Shown here: positions 9,340 through 30,215 of the stretch, piece by piece
Layout of the letters: each line of letters starts with the position of its first letter
Position numbering within the stretch: the first letter of the stretch is position 1
Source: a virus
Lineage: Duplodnaviria; Caudoviricetes
Direction: 5' to 3' (one strand)
IMG/VR virus record: IMGVR_UViG_3300031994_000023
Coordinates: 64,001-128,000 of that record
DNA: 64,000 nucleotides
The notes under the pieces: generated by a model
Database searches by the model: none
What the model saw: the letters and a program-made list of their open reading frames with translations, nothing else
Told to the model about the DNA's origin: nothing
Position numbers and translations under genes: made by a program

Positions 9340-10506
9340 TTATGGGTTTCCACCATTACCTGGAGTTATGGAACCACTAGTTCCATGAGTTGCATCATAG
9401 TTTGGATTGTGACTTGGTTGGTCACGGAGTGGCTCGTAAGCGTTTTTGTTGATGTACTCATAGGTACCTTTACCATTGTGGTGGAAGTTAGTGTAGTCAA
9501 CTCCTTCTTCAACGATTTTTGCTTCCGCTTTATCGGTTTCTGGGTGTGCACATACACATACATATGGGTTTTCAAATGCTTGGTCAACTTCCATTGTAAG
9601 TACAAAGTCGGTTAATCTTCTTCTTACATTTCTATCTCTTTCAATAGTTACGTTTTCAAAGATACCATATACAAGGTTGTCTGGGTTTACGAGCATTGCG
9701 GTTGTACCTACTCCTTCTAGAGTGGAGGCTTCATTTAATACAGGTGCCTCTCTGATTTCAATACCTTTGTATGGTCTTGCAATGAAATTGGTGATTGCGT
9801 CGTCACCAACAAGAGTTGGTCTTTCTCCTACTTGGTCTACATAGTCGTCGAAGGTGTCACTGTCAAGGTAGAATCTGAGGTTTCTTCTGTCTCCTCTATA
9901 TTCTTGTGGATATTTTTTGAGCATTTCTTTTAACATGAGTTTGACATCTCCGTCTTCTACTGCGGAACCATCAAAGTCTGTGTCGGCTCCACCACCATAA
10001 ATGTGGTTTCTGCATTTTGCAATCCAACCATTCTGCTCTGTTAATAATGGGTCTACTGTGTCATCATCTGCAAGTAATCTGTTTCCGAGTACTGCATAGG
10101 ATTCCCAGTCCACCCCTGCTTGTCCTGCCATCATGTTGATAAGGGTGTCTTCATATCCATCTCTTTCAATGTTTCTACGAAGGGCTTGGTCTGTGATGGC
10201 AACGTCAGCAATAAGTTCGTTGGCAACAAGTCTTTCTTGTCTTACTTCAGGTTTACTTCTTCTTGGTTTTTCTGTTTCTCTGCCTGGTTCAAGAATACGA
10301 CCTGTGAATCCAGTTCTGTCTATGTTGACTACTTGGTTATTCATCACAATTTGTCTTGCGTCTACTAGTATAGAAGTATCTCTTGTTGCATATTCAACAT
10401 ATTTGTCGAAGTATTCCGGTTGCAGTACACTTGCTCCGAAATTGTCAATTACCATTGATTTGTATGATTCTTCTATTTTATCCATTATGCTTTGTGTGTC
10501 TTCCAT
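9340..10506 (-). CDS. Major capsid protein (HK97 fold)
   Basis: 388 aa; GASVLQPEYFDKYV...ILVDAR...NIER...LVNPDNLVYG pattern; follows the protease gene. Confidence 0.85.
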   Translation of the reverse strand: MEDTQSIMDKIEESYKSMVIDNFGASVLQPEYFDKYVEYATRDTSILVDARQIVMNNQVVNIDRTGFTGRILEPGRETEKPRRSKPEVRQERLVANELIADVAITDQALRRNIERDGYEDTLINMMAGQAGVDWESYAVLGNRLLADDDTVDPLLTEQNGWIAKCRNHIYGGGADTDFDGSAVEDGDVKLMLKEMLKKYPQEYRGDRRNLRFYLDSDTFDDYVDQVGERPTLVGDDAITNFIARPYKGIEIREAPVLNEASTLEGVGTTAMLVNPDNLVYGIFENVTIERDRNVRRRLTDFVLTMEVDQAFENPYVCVCAHPETDKAEAKIVEEGVDYTNFHHNGKGTYEYINKNAYEPLRDQPSHNPNYDATHGTSGSITPGNGGNP

Positions 10507-10735
10507 GATTTGTAAATAATTCTCCTTTTGTTGTATTTTTTTTTGGTTTTTATTTTTTTATTATTTTTTTATACTTCTTTTGGTAGTGGGGTGCTTTATA
10601 CTGTTATCCCTCTCTTTTTGTGACGTTCCATTATTTTTTTTTTAGAGAATATATTTTTTTTGATGAACTATGTAAAAAAAAGGATGGAACACGGTAATAA
10701 CATTGAATCTTATCTTAATCCCCCTTTTTCCAAAT

Positions 10736-12229
10736 CTATTTTTTTCTTAATCTTCTACCGTACACGTCACGGTCACTCATTCTTGAGGTGTACCCTTTTT
10801 TTGATTCTTCTTGAAAACCATCGGATTCTGGATTGATGGCTTTGCTATAGGATTTAATGGATTCTTTCTGGGCTTTTTTGATGTTGCCCATCAAATCAGA
10901 TTTAAATGAAGAGAATTGTTCTTCGAAGATGGATTCAACCATTTCTTTGGTTGCATATTTTTCTATGGGTTCTACCTGTTCATCTTCTTCCTTTTTTTCT
11001 GGTTCTTCTGGTTTTGGTGGTGTTTCTTTGAAACTTCCTGCGAATTCGTAATCATCAAGGGCTTCTTGTATTCCATCAAACACCATCTGCTCAATTTCTT
11101 CTGCGTATCTTTGTAATGTGGTTCTGATGAGGTCTTCTACATCTTCTTGTGCAAGGTATAATACTGATTTTTCAGATTCTTTATTTACACATTTTTTAGA
11201 TTCTTTGCCTTTGCATTTTTCTGATTCTTTTCCACCACATTTCTCTGATTCTTCTTCGGTTACTTTTTCTTTCTGTGCTTCTTTAACTTTACCTTGGCTT
11301 GTTCCACCATTTCCGCCATTGTCTGTTGGCATTTCGGTTTCGGTTTCGTTTTCTCCTTCTCCAGTTGTGGTTGTGGTGTCTCCACTTGTAGTTGTGGTGT
11401 CTCCACCAGTGGTTGTAGAGTCTCCACCGTTACCTCCAGAACCTTCAGTTCCGTCATCTTCTTTTTTAGATTCTTCTGGTGATACTTCTTCTAATTCTTC
11501 AAGGTCTGCTTCACTTTTGTATTCTTTTACACTTTCTTCTTCTACATCTAATCCATCAATGAAAGTGTTTAATTCTGCTTTTATTTTATCTTTAAGACTC
11601 ATGTTTGATTTTGTGTTCTCCTTTAATTTATCTTTGTTTACAATAAGACAAGATTTCCGACAAAATTTGGCTCCGTAAACGCAAGGTTGACGAACTAATG
11701 AAACTGTGAAAGCAACGGGGTCTTTGACATCTTTCATAAGTATTCTTTTAGGTGTTTTTGTGAATGCCTTTTCGCTTTCAATTACACTTTCAGGGATTAG
11801 TAATTCTTTTTGACTTACATAATCCATGATGGCATTGGCGTGACTTCTTTCTTTCACAGTCACACTAAAACCAGTTAGTTGTCCCTTATTGTATAACTTC
11901 ATTGCCTCAGGGTCGGTAATTTTTACGCTAATTATCCATGTCCCTTGGGGGTATTTTCGATTAAATCCATCTAATCCTTTGAGGTATAGTTCATCTTCAC
12001 TGATGTAACTGTTAAGTAGTTTTCCTCTTTGTATTGGTTTCTGATGGTTTATTAATCTTTTAGTGTATTCATGTTGTAAATCTATTATTTTATACTTTTG
12101 AAAACTATCTGCTAACAGTTTTATTTTGTCTGGTGGAAGTACCTCTTCACCGTATTGATATTCACAATCAGGTGCGTATGGTATCAAGACAGGTGCTGTT
12201 ACTACAGGGTATTGTTTTATTTCTGTCAA
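10736..12229 (-). CDS. XkdF-like prohead serine protease fused to an acidic scaffold region
   Basis: VTAPVLIP..PD, IDLQHEY, PQGTWIISVKI, KGQLTGFSV motifs; long acidic low-complexity C-terminus. Confidence 0.85.
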   Translation of the reverse strand: MTEIKQYPVVTAPVLIPYAPDCEYQYGEEVLPPDKIKLLADSFQKYKIIDLQHEYTKRLINHQKPIQRGKLLNSYISEDELYLKGLDGFNRKYPQGTWIISVKITDPEAMKLYNKGQLTGFSVTVKERSHANAIMDYVSQKELLIPESVIESEKAFTKTPKRILMKDVKDPVAFTVSLVRQPCVYGAKFCRKSCLIVNKDKLKENTKSNMSLKDKIKAELNTFIDGLDVEEESVKEYKSEADLEELEEVSPEESKKEDDGTEGSGGNGGDSTTTGGDTTTTSGDTTTTTGEGENETETEMPTDNGGNGGTSQGKVKEAQKEKVTEEESEKCGGKESEKCKGKESKKCVNKESEKSVLYLAQEDVEDLIRTTLQRYAEEIEQMVFDGIQEALDDYEFAGSFKETPPKPEEPEKKEEDEQVEPIEKYATKEMVESIFEEQFSSFKSDLMGNIKKAQKESIKSYSKAINPESDGFQEESKKGYTSRMSDRDVYGRRLRKK

Positions 12230-12292: not shown

Positions 12293-12892
12293 TTATTCAA
12301 TGTCAACTATGGTCACAGTATACTCTTTATTCTCTGACCAATGAGTTCTAAACCATTTTTCTTTATGTATGTCTTTTACTTTGAATGATTCCGTGTTAAC
12401 CCATGATTCTCCTTCATTAACTGCGTAATCAGTCCATCGAGTGATATTAAAATGTCCTACACGGTTGTTTGTTCTGAAAACAACAAGTTCATCATCAGAG
12501 TCGAACATGAAACTAGCATAGTCTTTTGTTTGTTCTATATGTCTACTGAACGCTTTTAATGGTTTGTTGAAATGGATTGGTTCTCCTTTTTTTATGTCTT
12601 CTTTGGGTACGGATGTTCCCATTATTTCCACCCTCGTCAAATGCTCCAAGTCATGTTCCATATGTGATAACACATATTCCATTTCTTCTTCACCTAATAA
12701 ATCTGATGGTGCAGTACTGTGTCCATGAGCGTCGGGGACGGTTATGTGGTCTTGCCACATTTGGATGATGTGAGTTAAATCTTGGAAGAATTGTGGGGTA
12801 TGTCCTTCAAGAGGTATTTTGTCACCATTTTTCAAGGTAAATGTTTCGTCTGAGAATAATGTGTTCAGAGTGCTGTTTCCTTTACTTGCCAT
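12293..12892 (-). CDS. MASK protein 1: ADP-ribosyltransferase-like (ExE)
   Basis: MASKGNSTLNT start; LTRVE...GEPIHFNKPLKAFS...LVVF...NEGESWV. Confidence 0.55.
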   Translation of the reverse strand: MASKGNSTLNTLFSDETFTLKNGDKIPLEGHTPQFFQDLTHIIQMWQDHITVPDAHGHSTAPSDLLGEEEMEYVLSHMEHDLEHLTRVEIMGTSVPKEDIKKGEPIHFNKPLKAFSRHIEQTKDYASFMFDSDDELVVFRTNNRVGHFNITRWTDYAVNEGESWVNTESFKVKDIHKEKWFRTHWSENKEYTVTIVDIE

Positions 12893-12918
12893 GGTTTTTT
12901 CCACATTATCTTTTTTTT

Positions 12919-13554
12919 TTATTCTAATTCAACAAAAGTAACATTGTAATCAAAATTTGCACCTAATATTTCTTCAAGTTCTCTCATTAATTTTGGGTTT
13001 TCACGGTCTTTGTAATTTTTATTATACACTGCGGTTACTTTGTATTCTCTACGACAATCCAACCACAACTCTTGCTCATGTTTCACCACTGACCAATCAT
13101 ATGTTTTAAAGTAGGATGGATTTCCTTTCACTTTGAATATGACTAACTCATCATCTGGTTGAAATGTTGATTCCATGTAATCTTGAGTGCCATGTTCAGT
13201 TTCACTAAACGCTTTTAATGGTTTGTTAAATTTGATGTTTTTTCCAATTACAAAATCTTCCTTAGGGACACTTGTGCCAATTTGTTCTACTCGAGTAATA
13301 CTTTCACGGTCATTTTGCATGTGTTCATAAACATATTTTAATTGGTCGTCGGTTAAGATGTCGGAGGGTGCAGCACTGTGTCCGAATGCATCGGGGACAT
13401 CTTCGTGAAGAATCCATCTGCCTATCGCTTCATATAAATCTGGATGTTTTTTAATTTGTTCTCGTATGTGTTCGGGGAAATAACTTTCAACACCTTGGAT
13501 TATGTTATCTGAGTCATATGTGTTTAGTACGGTTTCACTGTATTTACTTGCCAT
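12919..13554 (-). CDS. MASK protein 2: ADP-ribosyltransferase-like (ExE), paralog of protein 1
   Basis: MASKYSETVLNT; ITRVE...IGKNIKFNKPLKAFS...LVIFKVKG...HEQELWL. Confidence 0.55.
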   Translation of the reverse strand: MASKYSETVLNTYDSDNIIQGVESYFPEHIREQIKKHPDLYEAIGRWILHEDVPDAFGHSAAPSDILTDDQLKYVYEHMQNDRESITRVEQIGTSVPKEDFVIGKNIKFNKPLKAFSETEHGTQDYMESTFQPDDELVIFKVKGNPSYFKTYDWSVVKHEQELWLDCRREYKVTAVYNKNYKDRENPKLMRELEEILGANFDYNVTFVELE

Positions 13555-13565
13555 ATCTTTTTGAT

Positions 13566-14168
13566 TCACTTATCTTCTTGTTCAATATATATCAAGCGGA
13601 TGGGTTTGTTATTGAGTATTTTTTGGTCATCCTCATCCCTAAACAAGGATGGTGGAAAATAATCTTTGTATTTTGTGGTTTCAATTTTTTTTACAACCCA
13701 GTTTTCTGAAGGTACAAATGTTTCTGATTGATGTGCAAAGGGAACACCATCCAATGGGAAATTAGGTGTTCCTTTGGGTGCAACTAGAATATCTAATGTT
13801 GGATACTGCTCAAAATACTTCTTTCTCGAACCTAAAACCCAATCGTCAACTACAAAATTTTGGAAGTTTTGTTTGTCATAACTGAATGATGACATGTCTC
13901 TACGAGTGAAGGGAACTGTATCCCCTACTTGTAGCTGGGAATATTTGGTAGGTGAACGATTTCTTAATTCTTCCATGGTAGGGTAAGTGAAACGGTATAA
14001 TTCATCTTTAGAAGGTTCCATTAATTCTCTCATCAAAGGGATTAATTCTTTAAAGTGTTCATTAAAGTTGGTACCATATTCATACACCCATTTATCAAAT
14101 TCCCAGTGTTCCTCCACAAATGCTTCACTTGCCTCCGAGTTCAGTGTAGTGTTTCCTTTACTTGCCAT
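13566..14168 (-). CDS. MASK protein 3: ADP-ribosyltransferase-like (R-S-QxE)
   Basis: MASKGNTTLNS; LYRF...VGDTVPF...MSSFS...ILVAPKGT...HQSETFV. Confidence 0.65.
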   Translation of the reverse strand: MASKGNTTLNSEASEAFVEEHWEFDKWVYEYGTNFNEHFKELIPLMRELMEPSKDELYRFTYPTMEELRNRSPTKYSQLQVGDTVPFTRRDMSSFSYDKQNFQNFVVDDWVLGSRKKYFEQYPTLDILVAPKGTPNFPLDGVPFAHQSETFVPSENWVVKKIETTKYKDYFPPSLFRDEDDQKILNNKPIRLIYIEQEDK

Positions 14169-14249
14169 ATACTTGAATTTTTTTTTGATAATGAAATGAA
14201 TATTTTTATATACTCTTGTTTTGTAATATATTATTAGGTGAAATAGAAT

Positions 14250-14549
14250 TTGACAACTTTAAAATATTTTTTAGACAGATTTAAGTGTAAGAATAGATTT
14301 GCAGATAACGTGGAAGCAATTGAGTTGGGTGATGTACAATTTGATGACATGTCATATGGTGACAATGTTATATTGTTCACAAACTCTGAAAACAATGAGG
14401 TGGTTCTGAGAATTGACTTAGACCGAAGAGACATATATCTTTACACGGTTATAAACGAAAAAGAAGTGAAAGTATCTCGTTGGTTAATCCATAACCAAGA
14501 CACACAAAAACTCACAATAACAGTACCAAGAGAACGAGTGAACATGTAA
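14250..14549 (+). CDS. Small plus-strand protein convergent on a peptidase (candidate immunity)
   Basis: Upstream TTTATATA and AGGTGA SD; N-term MTTLKYFLDRF resembles the other convergent genes. Confidence 0.6.
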   Translation: MTTLKYFLDRFKCKNRFADNVEAIELGDVQFDDMSYGDNVILFTNSENNEVVLRIDLDRRDIYLYTVINEKEVKVSRWLIHNQDTQKLTITVPRERVNM

Positions 14550-14609
14550 AAAAAAAGACCCGACCCCACCACACACCATCCACCCCCACCCCATGATACA
14601 AAGAGGGGA

Positions 14610-15449
14610 TTATCCTTTTTTTCTATCGAATTCATAAAAGAAACCACGAACAACTTCAAAAACATCTTCATCTGTTTTACAATCAAGAATAGTGTTCGCA
14701 ACCCTATCCAGATTCGGATTCATCCTCTTCCATTGAGCATAGGATACGGGCTCAGAATACTGATTACCATTTGGATTAGATACTACTGCCATACTAGGAT
14801 TTGTTCTATGCATCGCAACAATCTTAAAGGCATCTGCCCAATTCTCAGAATACCTATTTTCATAATTTAATTTACTATTTTTATCGAATGTGGCGTTAGC
14901 ATAACCACTTGATTTCTCAGTTTCAGATAGGTTCTTAAACCAATCCATACTAGGAATGTTTCTGAGTTTAGGATGGTCTTCCATACAATGTGCCATCTCA
15001 TGATATAATGTGTTTTGGGGCGAATTATAATTTTGATAAAACAATGATTTATTCCCAATGTACACATCATGAGTTCCATAAGGAACCGACCCATACTCTG
15101 CTAGATAATTCTGAGGGTCATAATCAAAGATAATTTTATCTACATTTTTCTTCATCAAATCTGGTGCCTCATTAACATACCGTAACAGGTCTTCCATAGT
15201 GTATGGTACCTCACCATCATTTTTTCGTTGATAGTATTCTAGATTGTCAAGGTAGTGTGTTGTGAATTCTACAGGTATGCCATCAGGTGATGTGAGGTAT
15301 ATTTTTTTTTCGTCATATGAATTTATTATGTAATTTTGTTGTTTACTCGCTTCGAGCAATAGTTTTGCAGAATTCTTTTTTATGTAGGGATTGTCTAAGA
15401 TGTTAGTTGTAGTTATTGTGTTTAAGATGGTACTTCCTTTACTAGACAT
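14610..15449 (-). CDS. MASK protein 4 (MSSK): zincin metallopeptidase, lethal-factor-like
   Basis: HEMAH...SGYA...SENWADAF. Confidence 0.7.
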   Translation of the reverse strand: MSSKGSTILNTITTTNILDNPYIKKNSAKLLLEASKQQNYIINSYDEKKIYLTSPDGIPVEFTTHYLDNLEYYQRKNDGEVPYTMEDLLRYVNEAPDLMKKNVDKIIFDYDPQNYLAEYGSVPYGTHDVYIGNKSLFYQNYNSPQNTLYHEMAHCMEDHPKLRNIPSMDWFKNLSETEKSSGYANATFDKNSKLNYENRYSENWADAFKIVAMHRTNPSMAVVSNPNGNQYSEPVSYAQWKRMNPNLDRVANTILDCKTDEDVFEVVRGFFYEFDRKKG

Positions 15450-15485
15450 ACTGTTCTTCGTGTTCTCATTTTTCTAGAGGAGTTT

Positions 15486-15878
15486 TTATAATGTGATTCC
15501 TTGTTCTTCTAATTCTTGTATTCTCTGGTTGAGTTCTCTCATTTCATCCCTCACCCTGTTATGTGCTTCCCTTGTTTCATCATATATTCTTTGTCTTCGT
15601 CCGAGTGTTGTGAGTAGTGGTGCGGATTCTCCTCTTACCTGTATCTGTGCCTTGATTTTTTCTAGGTCTTCTCTTGCACCCGCTAATTCGGCTCGGAGGA
15701 CGTTCATTTCAACACCTAAATCCCATACTCTTGCCCATTTATCGTTTAACTCTTGATGAAGTGCTTCTGTTTCAGATGGAATTAACCCTAATTTTCTATT
15801 TAATTCAACAAAATTCAGTTCACTTTCACCAGTTGTTTCTGTTCCATTTCCAGAGTTTCCTGTTCCTTTACTTGCCAT
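15486..15878 (-). CDS. MASK protein 5: coiled-coil
   Basis: MASKGTGNSG; heptad-rich body. Confidence 0.65.
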   Translation of the reverse strand: MASKGTGNSGNGTETTGESELNFVELNRKLGLIPSETEALHQELNDKWARVWDLGVEMNVLRAELAGAREDLEKIKAQIQVRGESAPLLTTLGRRQRIYDETREAHNRVRDEMRELNQRIQELEEQGITL

Positions 15879-15947
15879 GATTTTTTTTTTCCTTTATTTT
15901 CAAAAAACTAAATTTATATAAAAAATATGGGGAATATATTAAGTATT

Positions 15948-16067
15948 ATGACTATTCAAATCAAAGACATAATCAAAAAATATCATACAAACATTGAATT
16001 AACTAAAATGACACCTGAACTTCAAAATGTGGATATATTCCAAGATAATGTTAATGTAAATAATTAA
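15948..16067 (+). pseudogene. 39-aa truncated member of the convergent small-gene family
   Basis: MTIQIKDIIKKYHTNIELTKMTPELQNVDIFQDNVNVNN*; TTTATATA at 15913-15920. Confidence 0.4.
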
Positions 16068-16077
16068 TCACTCGTGG

Positions 16078-16563
16078 TTATAAATTGTATTGTGGATGAA
16101 TAATACTTCTTGCTCTTGATGTTAAGTCTAAATATTCTTTTAATTCGGGTGTGTCATTAATATTTTCTACTTCAAAGGAGCCGTCAAGTTTTTCTTGTAA
16201 ACTGTCCAGTTTACTTCTTGCTTCATTTAATAATGATTTTGTCTCATTATATACTGAGTTATTATATTCTGTGGTGATTAAGGGATGTTCTGCCACCCAC
16301 TGTGTATCTTGTTGTTGTCCTACTGTCCATTGATTTGTATTTTGTTGTCGTTGTAAATCCTGTTCTAAGAAATATAATTCATTTCGAAGGTTATTAACTC
16401 TTTCTTGTTGTTGTGTGTTGTTTCTTACGTTAGCCATATATTCTCCCCATGTGGATTCGGTTTGTGCACCACCTTCACTGTTGAGATATATTGCATAGTC
16501 ATCTATTCCTTCGTCGGTGTATGATGTTCCTCCACCTCCACCGCCTGTTCCTTTACTTGCCAT
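16078..16563 (-). CDS. MASK protein 6 (GIDDY leader), helical body
   Basis: MASKGTGGGGGGTSYTDEGIDDYAIYLNSE. Confidence 0.7.
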   Translation of the reverse strand: MASKGTGGGGGGTSYTDEGIDDYAIYLNSEGGAQTESTWGEYMANVRNNTQQQERVNNLRNELYFLEQDLQRQQNTNQWTVGQQQDTQWVAEHPLITTEYNNSVYNETKSLLNEARSKLDSLQEKLDGSFEVENINDTPELKEYLDLTSRARSIIHPQYNL

Positions 16564-16567
16564 GTTA

Positions 16568-17542
16568 TCATTTTATCTTTTTTAAATCTTTGAAGATTTG
16601 TTCTGCTTCCTCTCTTGTTTTACAATCCCATAGTCTGTTCCCCAATTTTGCAGATTCGGGGAATTCTTTCTCCCAACTATTATAATCCATTAGTTTCACA
16701 TGGTTTCCATTATATTCTGCATAAGTATCGGTAATATAATAACGGTTACCTACTCGTATGCGGGCATCGTCGTATCCGAGCCTATGAGAACCCACAACTT
16801 TCATGATTTCTGCAAGAGATTCTGTGTAATATCTAGGATTCGGTACGCCACGTACCATTTCACCACCGCTCTCATAGTTATATGTGTATGTTCCAGCATA
16901 AGTGGACACATTTTGTTTTTGTGTTTTCATTAATCTTCGGAAAGAGGGGTTGGAGGATAATGTAAATTCGTTTTGGTGTCCTCCATTATAGTCAAAGTTA
17001 TGGGTTATTTCATGAATAATAACACCCCTAACATCCCATGCATCATCTTTTTCATAGGATAAAAATGTTTTTTTGATTTCAACAATTCCATCTCTTTCTG
17101 GTCCATCATAATAACTACTCCCAGTTCTACCACTTAGTTTTACTTCTTTTAATGTCTCTTTGAACAAACTTGGTATTTTATCGATAGTTGTTAAGCAGTC
17201 TTCGAGGGTGGCTTGAGAGTGGGAACTCATACTTTCTTGTCTAAACCCTAATTTACAGTCTACAATGTATGTGCCAGTGTCTGTTTTTCCTTCGAATATT
17301 ACTGTTCCATCACTTTTAATTGTTTGAATAACCATATTCGCACTATTTGCTGATGAAAGAACATTCTGAATGTCTTCTTCTGAGAACTTTTTATATTTTC
17401 TCATTTTTTCGGCTTGTTCTTCATTGTAATTAAGTTCGGATGGTGTGAGAGTATGGTCGTCTTGTAAAATAGGGGAGAAATTAGTTTGATAGTCATCTAA
17501 TGTTAACTGGGTGTTTAATGTTATGTTACCTTTGCTCGCCAT
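16568..17542 (-). CDS. MASK protein 7: zincin metallopeptidase
   Basis: MASKGNITLNT; HEITH...VSTYA...TESLAE. Confidence 0.7.
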   Translation of the reverse strand: MASKGNITLNTQLTLDDYQTNFSPILQDDHTLTPSELNYNEEQAEKMRKYKKFSEEDIQNVLSSANSANMVIQTIKSDGTVIFEGKTDTGTYIVDCKLGFRQESMSSHSQATLEDCLTTIDKIPSLFKETLKEVKLSGRTGSSYYDGPERDGIVEIKKTFLSYEKDDAWDVRGVIIHEITHNFDYNGGHQNEFTLSSNPSFRRLMKTQKQNVSTYAGTYTYNYESGGEMVRGVPNPRYYTESLAEIMKVVGSHRLGYDDARIRVGNRYYITDTYAEYNGNHVKLMDYNSWEKEFPESAKLGNRLWDCKTREEAEQIFKDLKKIK

Positions 17543-17553
17543 GTTCCTTTTAT

Positions 17554-19284
17554 TTAGTCATTACTCCAGTATCCTTTGAAGTCGTTGGGATTTCTTATGT
17601 TTTTTATAACATCTGTGTTTTCACGATGGTCTTTTTCCTCTTCTATGGTTGGTACATTTGGTATCATTCCATAATTTTTGGTTTCATCAAGGTTGTTAGG
17701 GTCTACTGGACTTTCCATACTCTCAGGGTTAATGCCTAGTTGTGCCATTTGTAATTTTGTGGATATGTCATTCATCCACATTTGTTGCTGTTGTCTTTGT
17801 GTGTCAAGACTGTGTGATTCTTGACTCATTCCTGCATTGGCAAACATTAAACTTAATGGTGTTCCTCCGACAAAATATTCATCAAGGTATGGGTTGTCAG
17901 GGTCTGCCACTGCCCCTAATGGTTTTCCAAGGCTTTCACTTATTTGTCTTGGAGTCATCGCTCCCAAACTGAAAAGTATGCTCGCACTTTGAAGGTCACG
18001 GGCGTAGTCTCTTTTGTCAATATCTTCTATTTTGAATAACCATGAGAGGTATTTTTCCCCGTGTAAACGATAATATTCGTCACTGAGTATTTGGTTTACT
18101 ATGTCTTCATTTTTCTTTTTAATTGGTTGAATGATACTTGTGTTGTAAATGTTGGATGATTCTACACTAGTGTTTCCACCGAGACTCCCATTTATTGCCA
18201 TACCTATCCTGTATGGTGGAACTCCATGTGCACTTAGGACTTCGTCACGGTTGTCCGCTCGGTATAATCTGAAACTTGCCTCGTTACTTCCTCCTGCGTT
18301 TAGTTTTGTGAAACTTACATGCACGTTTCCTTCGGTGGATGGTACGAGCATGGCGAAGGCACTGTGAGGATTTTTAACGGCTTGTTCCATGTTTTCCTTA
18401 ATTTTGTATTTAAGGGTTTTTGTTTCATCATAGTCTGGGTCTTCTTCGTCCATCCCTGGGTCGAAGTCTCCTGTGACTGTTACTGCATATGAGGGCATTC
18501 CATAATTTTGGAAGAAACTACTGTTAAATCGGCTTCTTCCAAGGTCTCCGAAGATGGCTCTTATGACTGGTACTACTTTTGCACTTCCATATACTGGTGC
18601 GTGTGGTGCATAGTTTACTCCCCATATTAATTCGTTTGCTCTTTCGCTTGGGTCTAAACTGTTGTATTCGACTTGTTCTCCAGTGTCACAGTCGACATCG
18701 AATTTGACTCCATCGGGTGTGGTGTTTTTTCCATATAATATGAACCATCTATGTTTTTTTCCAACTCTTTGTAATACTCGTACTCCGTCTCGGTGTACTT
18801 TCATGTTGAATATGGGTGTGGGGTTAAGGTCGACTATGTCGCTTTCACTTGTGTTCCTTCTGAGAATTTCCATGCATCCACACCCGAGAGCTCTTTTATC
18901 ATAACAGAATCTGTATAATGCCGTGTTTATGGGTGTGTATAATTGTAGTAGGAAATCTTCTATGAATTGTTTCTGGTTTTTTGCTTCGTTAGATTCGTCT
19001 TCCACTTGGTTTCGTGGGACTAAACTGTACCCATATCCACTGGCGTCTTCCGCTACGACTTCGCAACATCTTCTATGGTATGTGTTGTTGTCTAATAATT
19101 CGCAGAGTCTTCTTAAATTATATTGGGGTCGTTTAAATTCGGCGTAATCGTATCCGTCATCATCGACTGCCTTCGTTCTTGCACGTGCTTCGTCCTCTTT
19201 GATAACATACCTGTCTAAGACACTTTTTTCTATTACTTCCCAGTCATTGTTTTTTTGGGTAACTACAAATTGTTCTATTGCCAT
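17554..19284 (-). CDS. Portal protein (PBSX-like)
   Basis: FFQNYGMPSY, EASF..YR..NRDEVLSAHGVPPYRIG...SLGG motifs. Confidence 0.9.
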   Translation of the reverse strand: MAIEQFVVTQKNNDWEVIEKSVLDRYVIKEDEARARTKAVDDDGYDYAEFKRPQYNLRRLCELLDNNTYHRRCCEVVAEDASGYGYSLVPRNQVEDESNEAKNQKQFIEDFLLQLYTPINTALYRFCYDKRALGCGCMEILRRNTSESDIVDLNPTPIFNMKVHRDGVRVLQRVGKKHRWFILYGKNTTPDGVKFDVDCDTGEQVEYNSLDPSERANELIWGVNYAPHAPVYGSAKVVPVIRAIFGDLGRSRFNSSFFQNYGMPSYAVTVTGDFDPGMDEEDPDYDETKTLKYKIKENMEQAVKNPHSAFAMLVPSTEGNVHVSFTKLNAGGSNEASFRLYRADNRDEVLSAHGVPPYRIGMAINGSLGGNTSVESSNIYNTSIIQPIKKKNEDIVNQILSDEYYRLHGEKYLSWLFKIEDIDKRDYARDLQSASILFSLGAMTPRQISESLGKPLGAVADPDNPYLDEYFVGGTPLSLMFANAGMSQESHSLDTQRQQQQMWMNDISTKLQMAQLGINPESMESPVDPNNLDETKNYGMIPNVPTIEEEKDHRENTDVIKNIRNPNDFKGYWSND

Positions 19285-19377
19285 GGTTATCTAGTTTAAT
19301 AGTATATATATGATAAAGTTTATAAGTAAAAAATATGATTAGATTCTCTTTTTTTATATAGATGAGGTGATTTGTTA

Positions 19378-19701
19378 ATGGTTAAAATAAAAGAATTAAT
19401 TAGTGAAACGGGCATTGATGTGAATGTTACAGATGCACTGTTGGAGTTGGAACCTATTAAAAAGTTCAAACTATTAAAATATGATAAAAGTAATATACAT
19501 GGACACAGATTCAAAGGAATTAGCAGTGAAGAGGGTGAAGAATACCGAGTAGTGATTGAAGTAAACGAACACTTTCAATCAATAACCCTAATAGAATACA
19601 AAGAAAAAGTAATTAAAAACAGATGGAACAAGGATGGAATATGGGACAACCCCCAACTACATTACATGCCAACACAAAACGAACTAAAACCTCACCCATA
19701 A
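19378..19701 (+). CDS. Small plus-strand protein convergent on a peptidase (candidate immunity)
   Basis: GAGGTGAT SD before the ATG; MVKIKELISETGIDVNVTDALLELE; 3' end overlaps the peptidase stop. Confidence 0.65.
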   Translation: MVKIKELISETGIDVNVTDALLELEPIKKFKLLKYDKSNIHGHRFKGISSEEGEEYRVVIEVNEHFQSITLIEYKEKVIKNRWNKDGIWDNPQLHYMPTQNELKPHP

Positions 19702-20681
19702 CGCTCCAAGTACAAAGCGTCCATCTTATCCAACCACTCACGAGGAGTTTTAGACTCACGAAACAAACGAGCCACATGGTCTAACTCAGGCTCCAACCTA
19801 ACATGCTCCTCATACGAAATATCCCCCGCAATAGTATACTGTGAACCATTAACATAACCCACCTTACCAGAACCAGGAGTAGAATCCTGAGCCTTTGCAC
19901 GAGTAGGATTAGAAATAGCAGTACCCAGAGGCATAACTGAACATGCAAGATTCTCAGTATGATACATTTCCCTCATTTCTTGTTCAGGATTATTTTTAAA
20001 CCCTCTTGCATACTCTGACGCACTATGCTCCTCTGACAACTTCTTAAAATAAGGATGGTCAGAAAGTGTAGTGTAAGATTCGCCACTTAAATAATCTACT
20101 TTATGAGTTCCTTCATGTTCCATCACATTCTTATAACCACTACTAGCCCATGGGTCTTTTTTATCAAAAATACTGAAAGAATCATAAATTATGACATCAT
20201 TTCCAGGGTCGTAATGTCCACTCTCTCCTTGGTCGTCACCATAAAATATCTGTGCTCCACCATAATACTTGAAAATTTCGGGGTAATCCTTGGCGTAATA
20301 TTTAAAAAACTGTTCGGGTGTAACAATTAATTCTCCGTTGTGCATTGCAGAGAGTACACTTGAATCTAAGAGTAATGCTTGATTATCAAAGTATGCCACA
20401 AATTCTTCATCTTCCATATAAAATTGGTCATAACCTAATTCTTTTAGAGTTTTCAGAAGTTTTGTTGCATCTTCTTCATTGAGGCTCGTGTTCTCAGTTA
20501 AGTATTCTATTGTTTCCGCTTCTTCTTGTTTTGTTGATTCTCTCATCATCATAACCCTTTCGTTGGGATGATGTTCACTACTACTTATCCAGTCACCATA
20601 TGAGTCTATGTATTTGTTGTAATCTTCCAACTCCTTGGTGGAACTTAAACTCATCAGTGATGTGTTTCCTTTACTTGCCAT
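19692..20681 (-). CDS. MASK protein 8: zincin metallopeptidase
   Basis: HEGTH...LSDHPYF...ASEYA...TENLA. Confidence 0.7.
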   Translation of the reverse strand: MASKGNTSLMSLSSTKELEDYNKYIDSYGDWISSSEHHPNERVMMMRESTKQEEAETIEYLTENTSLNEEDATKLLKTLKELGYDQFYMEDEEFVAYFDNQALLLDSSVLSAMHNGELIVTPEQFFKYYAKDYPEIFKYYGGAQIFYGDDQGESGHYDPGNDVIIYDSFSIFDKKDPWASSGYKNVMEHEGTHKVDYLSGESYTTLSDHPYFKKLSEEHSASEYARGFKNNPEQEMREMYHTENLACSVMPLGTAISNPTRAKAQDSTPGSGKVGYVNGSQYTIAGDISYEEHVRLEPELDHVARLFRESKTPREWLDKMDALYLERYG

Positions 20682-20857
20682 AAAACCTTTTTTTTTATGA
20701 TTCTTTTATTTGTAAATTCTCTCTCTCTTTTAATGAAAAACGTGTAAAAATTCCAAAAACACTCATCATTTGTGTGCCAAAATAACACCGTCCATACTCC
20801 ATTTTTCAACAGGGGACTTAATTAATTATATACTTCTTAAACAACATACAAGAATAC

Positions 20858-21166
20858 ATGACCAAACTAAAAAACATACTTCAAAAATTTAATTTAAATC
20901 CTGAGTTAACAGAAGCATTATTTGAGTTAGATTTTGTTGATATTTATGATAATTACCAGAATGAAACTGTAGATGGCAACAAGTTCCTTGTGTTAAGAGG
21001 TACGACCACCACACCAGAGGGGGAAATATACCCTCAAGAATTGGTTATTGATGAACAAAACCAAAAAGTAGTGGCATACGGTTATCCATTCAATGACACA
21101 AAATATGAGAAAGCACCTATTTTTTATCAGGAATATGATAAAAATGGTGAAATTATAGGAATATAA
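20858..21166 (+). CDS. Small plus-strand protein convergent on a peptidase (candidate immunity)
   Basis: TTATATA about 26 nt upstream (leaderless); MTKLKNILQKFNLNPELTEALFELD. Confidence 0.65.
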   Translation: MTKLKNILQKFNLNPELTEALFELDFVDIYDNYQNETVDGNKFLVLRGTTTTPEGEIYPQELVIDEQNQKVVAYGYPFNDTKYEKAPIFYQEYDKNGEIIGI

Positions 21167-21207
21167 AAAAAAGAGTACAGTATTCTTTTCTCCCTATTTT
21201 TTTTTAT

Positions 21208-22083
21208 TTATTTGAGTATTTGTGGTGTGGGCTCTGTTGGTTCTAAATATGTTTGTGCATAGAGTTTAGGGTTTTCTATAAATTCGCCTGCTAATTTTAT
21301 CATTTGTTTGTTTTCATCTTTTTTTGCCCAAGTCTTGTATGGCATAAGACCTTCTTTTGTAGGTACAATTATGTTTTCACCATGTTTTTTGGCTAATTGA
21401 ACATATGCTCCTACTTCTGCCAAGTTTTCTGCCCTTTTTCTCCAATCCGTAGACCTTGGGTCAATTGATACTGCATATGCATATTCTGTTGGTGTTTTAC
21501 CATCAGACGCTTCTTTCCACGCTTTGTTCTTAGAGAAAAAGCCTCGCACACTATTACTACTCCGGTATGCCCAGTCAAGAGAATGTATTGACTCATGATT
21601 CAAAGAATATTCTAAACTTTGTGGACTGTTCTTTGAGTGTAGTAAATTTCCAGCAGTGATTATGATTACGTTGGCACTTGGAACGAATTGTCCGAGAACT
21701 TCCCTACCATTTGGATTATATTTTGGTCCAGTGAATGTTATTTGGTTAACATGTCCTTTAATGTTAGGATTTAAGTTTGTATAATACTCCATAACATCCC
21801 TCAAAGTGTATCGTCCATCAGGTAAATTGTCATTTAATCCGAACCTTGAATTAGTAAGAAATGCTCCTCTAAATACCAATCTTTCGTTAGGTGCATTAGG
21901 GTCAGAGTTTGATAGGATGAGAGAATCTATTTTTTTATCATAGGTTGCGTTGAACCCATATTCTTTGGCTACTGTTTCAATGTATTTTATTTGATTGTCC
22001 ATTAAGTAACCCATTTGGTTGAGGTTTTTAATTTCAACGGAGTCTGTGGATATTGCGTTTAGTGAAGAGTATTTACTTGCCAT
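21208..22083 (-). CDS. MASK protein 9: zincin metallopeptidase
   Basis: HESIH...PTEYA...AENLAE. Confidence 0.7.
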   Translation of the reverse strand: MASKYSSLNAISTDSVEIKNLNQMGYLMDNQIKYIETVAKEYGFNATYDKKIDSLILSNSDPNAPNERLVFRGAFLTNSRFGLNDNLPDGRYTLRDVMEYYTNLNPNIKGHVNQITFTGPKYNPNGREVLGQFVPSANVIIITAGNLLHSKNSPQSLEYSLNHESIHSLDWAYRSSNSVRGFFSKNKAWKEASDGKTPTEYAYAVSIDPRSTDWRKRAENLAEVGAYVQLAKKHGENIIVPTKEGLMPYKTWAKKDENKQMIKLAGEFIENPKLYAQTYLEPTEPTPQILK

Positions 22084-22130
22084 AATCCCTTTTTTATGTT
22101 AATCCTGTTTGTCGTTTTATACTTTTTTTT

Positions 22131-22697
22131 TTATTTGTATCTTTCACTGACTAGTGTGTCCATTGCTGTTTGTGCACTATAATATCTGTCAAAGAATTCT
22201 TCTAGGTACCCTTGGTTTCCGAGATATTCTATTTGTCGTTCTAAGTCTCTGTTGATTCGTTCATTGTTTAAACCTCTGGCTTGTATTGTTTCCTGCATTG
22301 CCTTTGAGGATATTATGGTGTTTAATCTGTTTTGAACATCTCGTCCTCTTGATAATGTACCCATGAGTTCGGAGTAGGCTTGTTCTAGTTGCTCCGTTGG
22401 TTCTCTCAGTTGATTAAATGGGTAATTTTCTGTTTCAATATTATGTACGAGTTGTCTTGCCATTGACACTCTTTGTCTTTCGAGGTCATCTAGTTTTTGG
22501 GTTACATTATCTATTATTTCATCTGTGTCTTGCAGTAAGTGTTCTCGACTTCCGAAGGCACTTTCATTAGTTTGTGTTCCTGTTTCTGTTTCAGTTAATT
22601 CTTCTCCTGTGAGTGGGTCTGTGTTGTGCCAGTTTCCTTCACCATCTATGTATCCTACTCCCATTTGAATATTACTTCCACCATCTTTACTAGCCAT
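22131..22697 (-). CDS. MASK protein 10: helical/coiled-coil
   Basis: MASKDGGS start. Confidence 0.65.
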   Translation of the reverse strand: MASKDGGSNIQMGVGYIDGEGNWHNTDPLTGEELTETETGTQTNESAFGSREHLLQDTDEIIDNVTQKLDDLERQRVSMARQLVHNIETENYPFNQLREPTEQLEQAYSELMGTLSRGRDVQNRLNTIISSKAMQETIQARGLNNERINRDLERQIEYLGNQGYLEEFFDRYYSAQTAMDTLVSERYK

Positions 22698-22852
22698 TAT
22701 TTTATTATTCTCCTATTATATCTCTTTTTTTTGTGCCACATTGTTAGTTTGTGGCACGGAATTTAATAGTTTTTTTTCTCTGAAAAAAAAAAGAATTCAT
22801 TACAATAATTAATAAAAAATTATATCATTTATTAAAAACAAAAAAGATAATT

Positions 22853-23185
22853 ATGACAACAATAAATGATATTTTTAAACAATTCGGTTTAGACTGCCAT
22901 CTTTGTGAAACATTAAAAAAACACACACTAAAATATAACCCTACAATAACAGATTACAATCATGAAAAAAACCCTCAAACAAACAAAGCAATATATGAGA
23001 GATATTCATTTACTGGAACCTGTAACAAAGAAGGAACACCATGTGACATAAAATTAAACATAATGGTATATGACAACAATACCAAATTACATTATCGTGT
23101 AGAAGATAACAGTCGCTTCAAATCACCATTAAACGAGGGCATAACCATAGACTGTGACGGAAACAAAGGCTACGACCTAGGATAA
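22853..23185 (+). CDS. Small plus-strand protein convergent on a peptidase (candidate immunity)
   Basis: MTTINDIFKQFGLD; AT-rich TATA-like upstream region. Confidence 0.6.
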   Translation: MTTINDIFKQFGLDCHLCETLKKHTLKYNPTITDYNHEKNPQTNKAIYERYSFTGTCNKEGTPCDIKLNIMVYDNNTKLHYRVEDNSRFKSPLNEGITIDCDGNKGYDLG

Positions 23186-23264
23186 AAAAAACCCATCCTA
23201 CACCCCAACTTCTTCACCAAACTCTCAATTCTTTTTTTTCCACAAAAAACAATAAACACTCCGT

Positions 23265-24212
23265 TTATAACTTGCTATCCATGAATGCCACCACTTCATC
23301 AACAGAATTTGCATTATACACAACATCCGCCAACTCTGCCAACTCCTTATGAGACTTTCTCCAATCACCATAAGGCATGTCATTACCTGGATTAGAAGGG
23401 TCTTCAATCATTGCAAGATGTCGTGTACTCTTATCTGACCAATATCTCATAGGCATAACCGCTTCCGCCAAGTTTTCACAATAATATTTCCTATTCTCAT
23501 CAGGGTCAGATGAATTTTTATAACTTAAACTATACCCCGAAGCTGCACTTTTATCCGAAATTTTCATGAAATAAGGATGATTTGAGATTATTCCACCACC
23601 ATTAAGTGCACCTTTTCCTCCGAAATCCAATCTATGCACATGCTCATGTAACATTGTATGTCCTAAATCATAACTAGTACCTTGACCTATTTGGAACAAT
23701 GGTGTAACACTTATATAAATCTCATTGTCTTCTGTGTAATAGTTTTGGTCAGAATATGCGAATATTACTTTTCCACCATTTGCATGGAATAAATCTGGTT
23801 GATTATTTATTTCATCTAAGATTGATGAAAAACGGTATGCTGAATCGAATGGGTTGATTGGTATTTCATCTTCCACAAATTCTAGGTATCTGTCAGATAT
23901 GAAATATATTTGATTGTCTTGTCGTAATGTTATTCCATTTATTCCTTCATGTTCGTATTCTGGTAATATTTCGAATCCTGCATTTTGTATGTCATAGTAT
24001 AAGTCGTAGTATGCGTCAATGTCAAGTGTTTCTTCGTCAACCGTTTTGCTTTTTTCTGCCAGAAAATCTTCGACATCATCTACTGATTCCATATTATAGT
24101 ATTCATCTAATGAAGGGTCGTATGTTTTTTCTTGTTCGTCGAATGTTTCTTCGTATTCTTCCTCTGTCTCAGAAACGGTTGTTGTGGAACCACCACCATA
24201 TTTACTTGCCAT
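23265..24212 (-). CDS. MASK protein 11: zincin metallopeptidase
   Basis: HEHVHRLDF...ISNHPYF...ASGYS...CENLAEAVMPMRY. Confidence 0.7.
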   Translation of the reverse strand: MASKYGGGSTTTVSETEEEYEETFDEQEKTYDPSLDEYYNMESVDDVEDFLAEKSKTVDEETLDIDAYYDLYYDIQNAGFEILPEYEHEGINGITLRQDNQIYFISDRYLEFVEDEIPINPFDSAYRFSSILDEINNQPDLFHANGGKVIFAYSDQNYYTEDNEIYISVTPLFQIGQGTSYDLGHTMLHEHVHRLDFGGKGALNGGGIISNHPYFMKISDKSAASGYSLSYKNSSDPDENRKYYCENLAEAVMPMRYWSDKSTRHLAMIEDPSNPGNDMPYGDWRKSHKELAELADVVYNANSVDEVVAFMDSKL

Positions 24213-24255
24213 TTTTTTTATGTTCCTTCCGTTAAAGTTTTATATTTTTTTTTGT

Positions 24256-25212
24256 CTAAAAGTATTCATCCATATATTCATCTTTTAAGTGTTGTGGATA
24301 TGATTCCCATTTTTTGTCCAAGAATGACACTATCTCATCTAATGAATTAGAAGAATAAACTTTCTCTGCAACCTCTGCTAATTCCGTGTGTGTTTTCCTC
24401 CAGTTCCCATAGGGTATGTCTTCTCCTGTGTCAGGGTCACTAATCATAGCCATATGTCTTGTAGATTTATTCGCATAATATCTCATAGGCATAACAGATT
24501 CCGCCAAATTCTCTCCAAAGTAATTTTGCCAATCTAATGGATTATCACTTTCTTTGTAAGATTTACTGTATGCCGATGCAGGACTGCTATTTGAAATTGC
24601 CCTAAAATATGGATGTCCAGATATAAGTCCTTCACGTTGTTGTTTTCCTTGTTCAAAATCAAGCCTATGTATATGTTCATGAAGAATAGTTTGCCCTATT
24701 GAACCAGAAGTTCCTTTTTTATCATTGTCGAGCATGGTTGTACTGAGAGTAATTTCATTACTATAAGGGTCATAATAATTTTGGAAGGTGTCTTCTAAAC
24801 GTACAAGACCACCCATTGACTTAATTAATGGAGGATGTGAATCAAACTCTGCTAGAATATCTTTTAAAGAGTAATCTGTCTGATAATCAAGGGTTCCTCT
24901 CTTTTCGTTAAGGTAGTCCTTGTATTCATCAGATAAAAAATAAACATTATTATCTTTTCGGAACATTATCCCATCAACACCATCATAGGAAAATGTTGGA
25001 AGAACTTCATAACTGTTTGCAGTTAATGCGTCATAAATCTGAGCTAATTCTTGTTTAATTTCTGGTTCATCCACTCCCATTTCTTCCATTTTGGTGTTTA
25101 TAAAATCTTCTTTCCCCATTTCTTTCATATCATAATATGAAGATAGTGAAGGGTCACGGAGATTCAATGTACTCTCCGATGAAAGTAGAATAGAACTATA
25201 TTTACTTGCCAT
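24256..25212 (-). CDS. MASK protein 12: zincin metallopeptidase, close paralog of protein 11
   Basis: HEHIHRLDF...ISGHPYF...ASAYS...GENLAESVMPMRY. Confidence 0.7.
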   Translation of the reverse strand: MASKYSSILLSSESTLNLRDPSLSSYYDMKEMGKEDFINTKMEEMGVDEPEIKQELAQIYDALTANSYEVLPTFSYDGVDGIMFRKDNNVYFLSDEYKDYLNEKRGTLDYQTDYSLKDILAEFDSHPPLIKSMGGLVRLEDTFQNYYDPYSNEITLSTTMLDNDKKGTSGSIGQTILHEHIHRLDFEQGKQQREGLISGHPYFRAISNSSPASAYSKSYKESDNPLDWQNYFGENLAESVMPMRYYANKSTRHMAMISDPDTGEDIPYGNWRKTHTELAEVAEKVYSSNSLDEIVSFLDKKWESYPQHLKDEYMDEYF

Positions 25213-25248
25213 TGTTTTTTTTTATAGTGTCTCTTTTAAAATTTACTC

Positions 25249-25839
25249 TTATGCCTCTTCAATATAAATTAAGCGTACTTTTTCGTTTTCCCTCAGTTCT
25301 TCATGAGTAGTATTTTTCCTGTCAAAGAAATCATAATAATTAACTGTTTTAATATCCTTAACAAGCCACCCCTCACCTTTACCGTCACCCCTCACTAAAC
25401 GTTCTGCCTGACCATATTCTTCTTGATAATAGTCAAGAGAAAACATGGGAGTACCTTTCGGTGCGATGAATATATTGTAGGGAGCATTGTTTAATTGTCT
25501 GTATCGGGGGTTTCTGAATATTTCAACAACACCCTCTTGAAACGAAGAGAAATCTTCACTAAACGATTTAAGTGTTCCTGTGAAGAATACGGAATCTCCA
25601 ATTTTCAAGTTATCATGTTCATTTTCATACGCTTCATCTCCATAGTTTGTATTGGATGGAGTGCTAAATCTATACAATACATCTTCTGATGGTTCCATAT
25701 GGTCAAGTATATACTGTTCTTGTTCGGGGCTAAAAAGATTGCCATCACCCGAAACCCATTTATCGAATGTTTCCAGATTATCTTGGATATATTGGTCAGA
25801 TAATTGTGATTGTAGTGTCACATTGCCCTTGCTCGTCAT
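25249..25839 (-). CDS. MASK protein 13 (MTSK): ADP-ribosyltransferase-like (R-S-QxE)
   Basis: VLYRF...IGDSVFF...LKSFS...IFIAPKGT...YGQAERLV; paralog of protein 3. Confidence 0.65.
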   Translation of the reverse strand: MTSKGNVTLQSQLSDQYIQDNLETFDKWVSGDGNLFSPEQEQYILDHMEPSEDVLYRFSTPSNTNYGDEAYENEHDNLKIGDSVFFTGTLKSFSEDFSSFQEGVVEIFRNPRYRQLNNAPYNIFIAPKGTPMFSLDYYQEEYGQAERLVRGDGKGEGWLVKDIKTVNYYDFFDRKNTTHEELRENEKVRLIYIEEA

Positions 25840-25930
25840 ACTCCTCTTCTTCTTCTTTTTTTTGTTCTGAACCTTTCTTTTTCCTTAGATTAACAAGTTA
25901 TACTCCTAATATAAGACTATTTGACATGTT

Positions 25931-27451: not shown

Positions 27452-27555
27452 GGTTCAATTATAAAAAAAAATGTTGGTTTTATTCTAATGTTTCTTCTTC
27501 TTTAGTGAGGAATTTCCTTTTTCCGAGAGGGGGGTGTGTGTGTCGTGTAGTTTTT

Positions 27556-29210: not shown

Positions 29211-29370
29211 TTTTCCTTCCTTTTTCAGAGTATTCTATTGTATCTTCTTCTAATATTGGGTTATGAACATTTCCGTCTGCGTCTATGGTTTCGAGAATGT
29301 ATCCTTCTTCATCATTGAGTATACTGTATTCTCCATCCCTAGTTACTTTGCTCAAAATTTTTTCAATCAT
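29191..29370 (-). CDS. 59-aa hypothetical protein
   Basis: Hand translation MIEKILSKVTRDGEYSILNDEEGYILETID...; overlaps the terS start. Confidence 0.4.
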   Translation of the reverse strand: MIEKILSKVTRDGEYSILNDEEGYILETIDADGNVHNPILEEDTIEYSEKGRKNVKKRQ

Positions 29371-29452
29371 GTATATAAGATATGTGTTAAATTAAAGTTT
29401 ACAAAAAATAATAAAAAAAAAAATAATAATAGGGAGGAGAGGATGCTTTTAT

Positions 29453-29860: not shown

Positions 29861-29874
29861 TGATTATTCCCTCT

Positions 29875-30144: not shown

Positions 30145-30215
30145 TATTCTTTAAATTTCTCCTTTTTTTTATTAGTTCGTCTGTATTTTTATTATTTTGT
30201 TTTTTGATTGGGAAA

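Follow-up and report, generated by a model that had tools for sequence, protein, structure and literature searches.

The window analysed here, bases 64001-128000 (64,000 nucleotides) of one 141,779-bp virus contig (IMG/VR record IMGVR_UViG_3300031994_000023; Caudoviricetes; 34% G+C; CheckV completeness 92%), encodes a protein in which an XkdF-type prohead protease is fused to a scaffold, directly upstream of an XkdG/HK97-fold capsid gene. In this protease-scaffold the peptide motif E-S-x-K (E-[SA]-x-K among homologues) occurs far more often than expected, is fixed in position among homologues and lies at the borders of conserved domains; in the capsid protein it occurs once, in a short N-terminal leader, at an invariant lysine. 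These patterns suggest, with moderate confidence on our part, that the fused protease cuts its substrates at E-[SA]-x-K.

Counts and conservation of the lysine motif

The protease-scaffold gene (10736-12229, minus strand) encodes 497 amino acids, with the protease (residues 1-150), a helical core (355-397) and a basic tail (479-497) in a single open reading frame (ORF); beyond the protease domain the protein is rich in Glu, Lys and Ser. Residues 9-125 match the Pfam family PF14550 (Peptidase_S78_2, XkdF; E 6.2e-13, 49.3 bits, cut-off 24). By analogy with His65 and Ser114 of HK97 gp4, we take His53 (DLQHE; 12071-12073) and Ser122 (TGFSVT; 11864-11866) to be the catalytic residues. Both are 100% conserved across 134 aligned homologous domains, in which Asp21 (96%) and Asp50 (94%) are nearly so, and both are invariant in an alignment of 14 scaffold homologues with 50-63% identity (alignment A1). 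The neighbouring capsid gene (9340-10506, minus strand) encodes a 388-amino-acid HK97-fold protein, and the best Foldseek matches of its model are the capsid of the P2-like phage phiRSA1 and the P4 procapsid (E about 1e-13). A sequence search of the PDB returned no match for either protein.

Each of the S-x-K peptides that the initial annotation had attributed to the protease-scaffold is present there (positions in Table 1), including a tandem block, ESEKCGGK-ESEKCKGK-ESKKCVNK-ESEK (residues 327-354), whose four E-S-x-K units are carried by a 24-nucleotide tandem repeat of 3.7 copies (11167-11253; Tandem Repeats Finder). Quantification against 5,000 shuffles of the protein revealed 14 occurrences of S.K (a dot standing for any residue) where 4.75 are expected, and 9 of ES.K where 0.66 are expected (p<2e-4 for each), while the reversed controls were flat or depleted (K.S, 4 against 4.7; S.E, 1 against 5.2). 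With two tandem copies removed, S.K still occurs 12 times against 4.2 expected (p=4e-4) and ES.K 7 times against 0.57 (0/20,000 shuffles, p<5e-5). When all ORFs in the window are compared, ES.K accumulates in the protease-scaffold; the capsid protein has a single copy (residues 13-16), against 0.04-0.05 expected. The initial annotation had proposed setting the frequency of S-x-K against amino acid composition; with that comparison made, the excess remains, and composition alone fails to explain it.

The positions of these sites are conserved where the surrounding sequence is not. In A1, residues 226-355 form an unalignable linker, acidic or Gly/Thr-rich, in which 20 residues are at least 85% conserved, and 12 of the 20 fall within four E-[SA]-x-K(-acidic) sites: E232-S233-x-K235-E236, E253-x-x-K256-x-D258, E317-A318-x-K320 and E351-S352-x-K354. 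Beyond these, the conserved residues are Gly275, Gly313, Lys314 and the GLDV with which the preceding conserved segment ends. Within the tandem block only the last unit is conserved (ESEK 351-354; Glu351 93%, Lys354 93%; earlier units 29-43%), and this unit directly precedes a conserved VLYLAQ helix. More generally, motif sites flank the conserved domains of the alignment. The peptide SFKS also recurs near the C-terminus of the protease-scaffold homologue of Methanobacterium virus Drs3.

Internally, the scaffolds of relatives carry a unit with a Cys, SEKCGG-TKTIYGRKVK, once or twice (A1 columns about 280-310 and 440-470). It is similar to the C-terminal tail (RDFNGCRIRKR) and has [SA]-x-K sites on either side of every copy. 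In the window, the KESEKCGG tandem repeat (11168-11251) stands in place of this unit.

The excess extends to the XkdF protease family. Searching a representative library (50%-identity clusters) with the protease domain gave 210 homologues at E<=1e-3, and family counts were made on 125-126 of the best 150 representatives, those with at least 100 residues after the protease part. In their scaffold parts we counted 754 [SA].K against 417 expected (Z 19), 522 [SA].K[ESAGDC] against 184 (2.8x, Z 27) and 110 [SA]-[FLIVMY]-K-[SA] against 12 (Z 28), with six control patterns (K.[SA], [SA]K, [SA]..K, [SA].R, [SA].E and [TG].K) at or below 1.0x. If the residues on either side of the putative bond are called P1 (the Lys) and P1', P3 is preferably Ala or Ser and P2 Phe, Leu, Ile or Val, and Ser is favoured at P1' (3.95x given Ala or Ser at P3); at P1', Tyr is depleted (0.4x) and Gly enriched (1.5x). 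The family consensus thus reads [AS]-hydrophobic-K|S, the bar marking the bond that would be cut.

Across the family, [SA].K clusters at segment borders, namely at query positions 129-139 and 151-161, both just after the catalytic core, and at 193, the end of the middle segment, where 65 of 135 members have it. Of 134 representative XkdF fusions, 75 fit a loose tail pattern ([RK]D...?G or G[RK]D within the final 25 residues); MGRDxxGRxIR is typical of such tails, and x-K|S usually lies about 20 residues before the C-terminus. Two small relatives without the N-terminal cargo tag described below also keep the motif: L008 (capsid DASFK|EL; scaffold E[SA].K, 4 against 0.7 expected) and L009 (capsid EESIK|SI; scaffold, 5 against 0.5).

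In the capsid leader, the EESYK|SM pointed out in the initial annotation is present, spanning residues 12-18 with its lysine at residue 16. Lys16 is invariant in all 78 capsid homologues found (33-100% identity) and occupies one of only 20 invariant columns in a 58-sequence capsid alignment (A2), in a context that is always [SA]-[FYIMV]-K-[SAED]-[IVLM]-[TV], and the leader upstream of it varies in sequence and in length (about 6 to 40 residues). Measured from the conserved LNPE element, a lysine stands at the matching distance in Methanobacterium viruses PhiF3 (TTMK|QITV) and Drs3 (VANK|ASAL) and in Clostridium phage Clo-PEP-1 (MSKVNK|AVFN). Residues 1-24 of the AlphaFold2 capsid model are of low confidence, the ordered fold begins at about residue 28, and the PHROG profile match begins at residue 21.

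Other features of the capsid family were also seen. A clade of homologues (P0038-P0045, one of them annotated from a Methanobrevibacter metagenome-assembled genome, or MAG) have an insertion of ~20 residues, VGGH[FL]YEGGT.VG..AMR, right after the invariant Lys site, which would form the new N-terminus of their mature capsid protein. The capsid protein of the window ends in an extension of ~55 residues (about 333-388; 9340-9510), His/Asn/Gly/Pro-rich and of low model confidence, that homologues of 320-335 amino acids are without; it may be a surface or decoration-binding tail. Finally, the capsid leader of relatives (MSELQSIMDKVEESYK; L001 11880-13058, L010 10001-11188) is similar to residues 1-17 of the HK97 delta domain (MSELALIQKAIEESQQK; gp5, L007 1529-2686), a resemblance that could be chance or the remnant of a shared N-terminal scaffold-contact helix.

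Proposed cleavage and its alternatives

Our reading of E-[SA]-x-K as cut bonds draws on HK97, whose prohead protease, the type member of the related family, cleaves the capsid protein between K103 and S104, where the chain is unstructured (PMC10275583). The initial annotation had proposed that the XkdF-type protease recognises the motif; this is borne out to the extent that the motif is enriched, position-fixed, placed at domain borders, general to the family and avoided in capsid bodies. That it is cut, at the Lys bond and by this protease, we infer.

In the mechanism we propose, the basic C-terminal tail, by analogy the probable capsid-binding end of the scaffold, would bring the protease-scaffold into the procapsid. 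After assembly, the protease would cut following the Lys of E-[SA]-x-K. With cuts at about nine conserved site groups, the protease domain would be set free, site 1 being the candidate self-release cut, and no scaffold piece would be longer than about 80 residues; most of the linker sequence at 257-320 and 321-354 is disordered. The cut at the last site would detach the 19-residue, probably capsid-binding tail. In the capsid protein, a single cut after Lys16 would remove the acidic 16-residue leader, so that the mature protein would start at Ser17 (SMVIDNF).

Known systems offer partial parallels. Like HK97 gp4 (MEROPS S78), the protease is a His/Ser serine protease encoded beside the capsid gene, with the same G-x-S-V around the Ser; the HK97 cut site (TFNK|SLGS), which lies in a flexible part of the chain ahead of the N-arm, likewise has Lys at P1 and Ser at P1', although cutting is seen in HK97 and predicted here, and the context TFNK|S differs from [AS]-hydrophobic-K|S. 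The HK97 scaffold, moreover, is the 103-residue delta domain of the capsid protein, and its protease is a separate protein of 225 amino acids, whereas the present protein joins scaffold and protease, and its capsid partner has a leader of only 16 residues. The fusion recalls phage P2, whose gpO has an N-terminal serine protease and a C-terminal scaffold, cuts itself, trims the N-terminus of the capsid protein gpN and leaves the head. Protease and scaffold in one chain, a short capsid leader and a P2-like capsid fold are shared with the gpO/gpN pair; the likeness is architectural rather than one of family, as the Pfam scan gave only PF14550, and P2 sites are not known to follow this Lys motif. 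The T4 gp21 code, (L/I)-x-E, and the phiKZ gp175 code, (S/A/G)-x-E, are three residues long; the scaffold or core proteins carry many copies, the capsid protein a single one close to its N-terminus. Like them, the present motif can be read from sequence as motif enrichment; unlike it, they belong to S77 proteases that cut after Glu.

Several points weigh against cleavage: firstly, in the literature searched on XkdF, XkdG, PF14550, psiM2 and Drs3 we found no experimental cleavage or specificity data for XkdF-type proteases; secondly, an hhalign profile comparison of the protease with HK97 gp4 was not significant (probability 0.7%), so that it is the Pfam family and the His/Ser pattern that tie the protein to HK97; thirdly, SSFK 443 and ESIK 459 fall inside a predicted helix rather than a linker, in a model of poor quality; fourthly, because that AlphaFold2 model of the whole protease-scaffold is too poor for use (mean predicted local distance difference test score, pLDDT, 41.6), the placement of sites in exposed linkers rests mainly on the conservation pattern; fifthly, the Z-scores for the depletion of the motif in capsid bodies ([SA].K 98 against 152 expected in the 78 homologues; strict motif 1 against 5.9) are inflated by the kinship of the sequences; and finally, the invariant Lys16 with its conserved neighbours could be a scaffold-binding N-arm element that is never removed.

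This last point belongs to the main rival, in which the motif is an uncut contact or structural element and the leader stays on the mature capsid protein: a Lys-bearing unit might, for example, bind the scaffold to the capsid N-arm, or bind either of them to the acidic inner surface of the capsid. Conservation on both sides of Lys16 ([SA]-hydrophobic-K-x-hydrophobic-T) would fit a structural N-arm, as would the two scaffold sites in a predicted helix, and many phages with a separate scaffold, such as P22 and SPP1, leave their capsid protein unprocessed. Against a contact element, the same protein holds a protease domain with fully conserved His and Ser, which needs substrates; the motif is directional and specific in its spacing, and sits at domain borders and in linkers that do not align; its avoidance in capsid bodies is not required of a binding motif; and the preference for Lys at P1 and Ser at P1' matches HK97 cleavage. 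We therefore consider the contact reading unlikely.

That the sites are cut, but by a host protease, has a precedent in Staphylococcus phage 80alpha, which uses the host protease Prp; nothing in that precedent is specific to the present virus. The motif accompanies XkdF fusions across Methanobacteriales, Clostridium and about 125 diverse metagenomic representatives, and because it travels with these fusions across very different hosts, the shared factor would be the viral protease; we regard host cleavage as very improbable. Lastly, an artefact of Glu/Lys/Ser-rich composition (68, 62 and 38 residues, respectively) and recent tandem duplication, with four motifs in one 24-nucleotide repeat, can be rejected almost outright, since a roughly 12-fold excess survives shuffling, mirror controls and collapse of the repeat, and since the sites are fixed in position among homologues and the excess is family-wide.

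Should cleavage at E-[SA]-x-K hold, the mechanism would be ordinary for tailed viruses. Short, readable codes are familiar from the prohead proteases of T4, phiKZ and HK97; the possible novelty lies in a specificity rule for the XkdF family. This family is common: Firmicutes, Actinobacteria and Vibrio phages have it, as do the PBSX element and methanogen viruses. With [AS]-hydrophobic-K|S as a rule, the N-terminus of the mature capsid protein and the fragments of the scaffold could be predicted for hundreds of phages and methanogen viruses, and model building for cryo-electron microscopy maps would also be helped. Ordinary tryptic proteomics of virions would be blind to the predicted cuts, because trypsin also cuts after Lys.

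The N-terminal tag of neighbouring cargo genes

Twenty-four genes start with ATGGCAAGTAAA or a near variant (M-[AST]-S-K), all of them at 12.3-42.8 kb of the window, and only one further M-[AST]-S-K start occurs outside this zone in the whole 141.8-kb genome. The tag reads MASK[GYN] and, here as in relatives, is followed by a linker rich in Gly, Ser, Asn or Thr. The initial annotation had counted this tag as an instance of a small-x-K consensus and had proposed that it is a docking or maturation site analogous to the capsid-targeting sequence (CTS) of T4. As letters, the tag does fit small-x-K; it does not fit the true motif, as it has no Glu at P4 and no hydrophobic residue at P2.

If the protease did recognise M-A-S-K on the 24 cargo proteins, docking there, cutting there or both, as in the T4 system, then A-S-K|G would satisfy the preferences for Ala at P3, Lys at P1 and Gly at P1'. 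The tagged genes are confined to the head-gene zone, and the cargo resembles packaged effectors, including zincin-like and ART-like domains of the types found in capsid-packaged polyvalent proteins (PMC5512222). Against this, the Ser at P2 is not hydrophobic, and the P1' residue in 5 of the 24 tags is the disfavoured Tyr; a cut after residue 4 would leave no leader for docking, and the T4 internal-protein leader ends in a protease site, which the MASK tag does not.

Comparison with related genomes is more telling. Six related contigs (L001, L002, L003, L010, L011 and L012) share the head module and the EESYK|SM capsid site, and E-[SA]-x-K is present 12-14 times in each of the three scaffolds that were counted. 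Even so, the first residues of their cargo genes read MGKNR (L001, L010, L012), MGKSR (L011), MGNN[TPS], which has no Lys (L002), or M[AGT][SG]KY (L003), so that relatives with the same protease sites use other tags, which does not support the proposed link between tag and protease. The cargo bodies themselves are homologous between genomes (zincin-like, ART-like and a small helical family, 21-38% identity), and at least three unrelated cargo families have homologues in the relatives. Even the close relatives L002 and L011 differ in tag, despite 92% identity in portal, 89% in capsid, 87% in scaffold and 98-99.6% in tail proteins.

The cargo proteins are not enriched for the motif: in the 24 of them, ES.K occurs 3 times against about 2 expected, and internal [SA].K[ESAGDC] 16 times against about 11, with no N-terminal clustering. 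None of the tagged cargo proteins has a scaffold-like tail (RD..G) at its C-terminus. From their sequences, then, there is no sign that the cargo proteins are protease substrates, and we hold recognition of MASK by the protease to be quite unlikely. An L-N-[ST] element that follows many tags was considered as a second cut site and rejected, having no counterpart in the scaffold or the capsid protein.

Because relatives change the tag while keeping the protease sites, because the tagless L008 and L009 keep the motif, and because the cargo has no excess of it, the comparison indicates that the MASK tag is a separate, genome-specific and fast-changing signal rather than part of the cleavage motif. 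By analogy, its most plausible role is that of a loading address for head-packaged effectors. Zincin-, ART- and MuF-type domains are classic capsid-packaged modules (Iyer et al. 2017, PMC5512222). As with the T4 CTS and polyvalent proteins, unrelated effector-like domains (zincin, ART-like) lie among the head genes behind a short shared N-terminal leader; unlike in those systems, the tag has only 4-5 residues, is followed by a Gly/Ser/Asn-rich linker and differs between close relatives, and the cargo consists of about 24 separate genes rather than the giant fusions of polyvalent proteins.

The Ser codon of the tag (third codon) is AGT or AGC in 24/24 genes, and AGY makes up 40% of the Ser codons in the window; this difference suggests that the tags share descent by duplication or recombination and did not originate independently. 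The difference between the close relatives L002 and L011, in turn, indicates that the whole tag set is replaced quickly, probably co-evolving with a putative partner.

Taken as a whole, the virus head might use two short-peptide codes, an XkdF cleavage rule and a 4-5-residue N-terminal loading address, which for an archaeal virus we put forward only tentatively, as less than an even chance. If so, the second code (MASK here; in relatives MGKNR, MGKSR, MGNN or MxSKY) would direct some two dozen separately encoded effector enzymes into the capsid; close relatives would exchange the set in its entirety, and the code would co-evolve with a putative receptor, independently of the protease. With MASK probably not a protease site, work on the 24 tagged cargo genes would be redirected to a genome-specific receptor.

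Feature map and genome context

Nearly all genes of the virus lie on the minus strand, and the head genes run in the order portal, terminase, protease-scaffold, capsid (Table 1). The same order is found in PhiF3, Drs3 and the related loci L001-L012.

Table 1. Features of the head-gene region, in window coordinates; percentages refer to alignment A1
Feature	Position	Strand	Evidence or remark
Predicted mature capsid, residues 17-388	9343..10458	-	phrog_1623, E 2e-57; AlphaFold2 mean pLDDT 78.7
Capsid leader, residues 1-16, ending ESYK, predicted removed	10459..10506	-	Invariant Lys16
Basic C-terminal tail, residues 479-497 (...DRDVYGRRLRKK)	10739..10795	-	Fits family tail pattern
Site ESKK 475-478, last before tail	10796..10807	-	Lys478 86%; E-[ST]-x-K, 19 residues from C-terminus
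Site ESIK 456-459	10853..10864	-	Glu456, Ser457, Ile458, Lys459, Ser460 invariant
Site SSFK 440-443	10901..10912	-	Phe442, Lys443, Ser444 invariant
Site GSFK 398-401, directly after helix	11027..11038	-	Lys401 86%; [SA]-[YF]-K-E-[DT] in relatives
Conserved helical scaffold core, residues 355-397	11039..11167	-	High A1 conservation; low-confidence model helix 361-395
Tandem block 327-354, four E-S-x-K units	11168..11251	-	Tandem Repeats Finder, period 24
Site EAQK 317-320	11270..11281	-	Glu317, Ala318, Lys320 each 86%
Site 3, ESKK 253-256	11462..11473	-	Glu253 100%, Lys256 93%, Asp258 93%; E-[SA]-x-K-[ED]-D-G
Site 2, ESVK 232-235	11525..11536	-	Glu232, Ser233, Lys235 invariant in 14; adjoins unalignable linker
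Conserved middle segment, residues 155-231 (PKRILMKDV...PCVYGAKFC...IDGLDV)	11537..11767	-	Many invariant A1 columns
Site 1, ESEK 151-154, end of protease domain	11768..11779	-	Glu153, Lys154 invariant in 14; E-[SAV]-E-K
Protease domain, residues 1-150	11780..12229	-	PF14550 match; conserved His/Ser
Zone of 24 M-[AST]-S-K-tagged genes, interleaved with portal and terminase	12293..42806	-	Separate tag system
Portal	17554-19284		Upstream of protease-scaffold/capsid pair
Large terminase	25931-27451		Upstream of protease-scaffold/capsid pair

The closest isolated viruses are the Methanobacterium viruses PhiF3 (capsid 32% identity) and Drs3 (27%), and a capsid homologue with 54% identity is annotated in a Methanobrevibacter MAG. 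From these capsid relatives, a host among the Methanobacteriales is likely. A search for pseudomurein endoisopeptidase (PF12386) gave no match in the genome, but control genomes were likewise unmatched, which makes this absence uninformative as a host marker. Within the cargo zone lies a tRNA-like gene (38423-38500, minus strand), which ARAGORN reports as 'tRNA-???' with a two-base anticodon.

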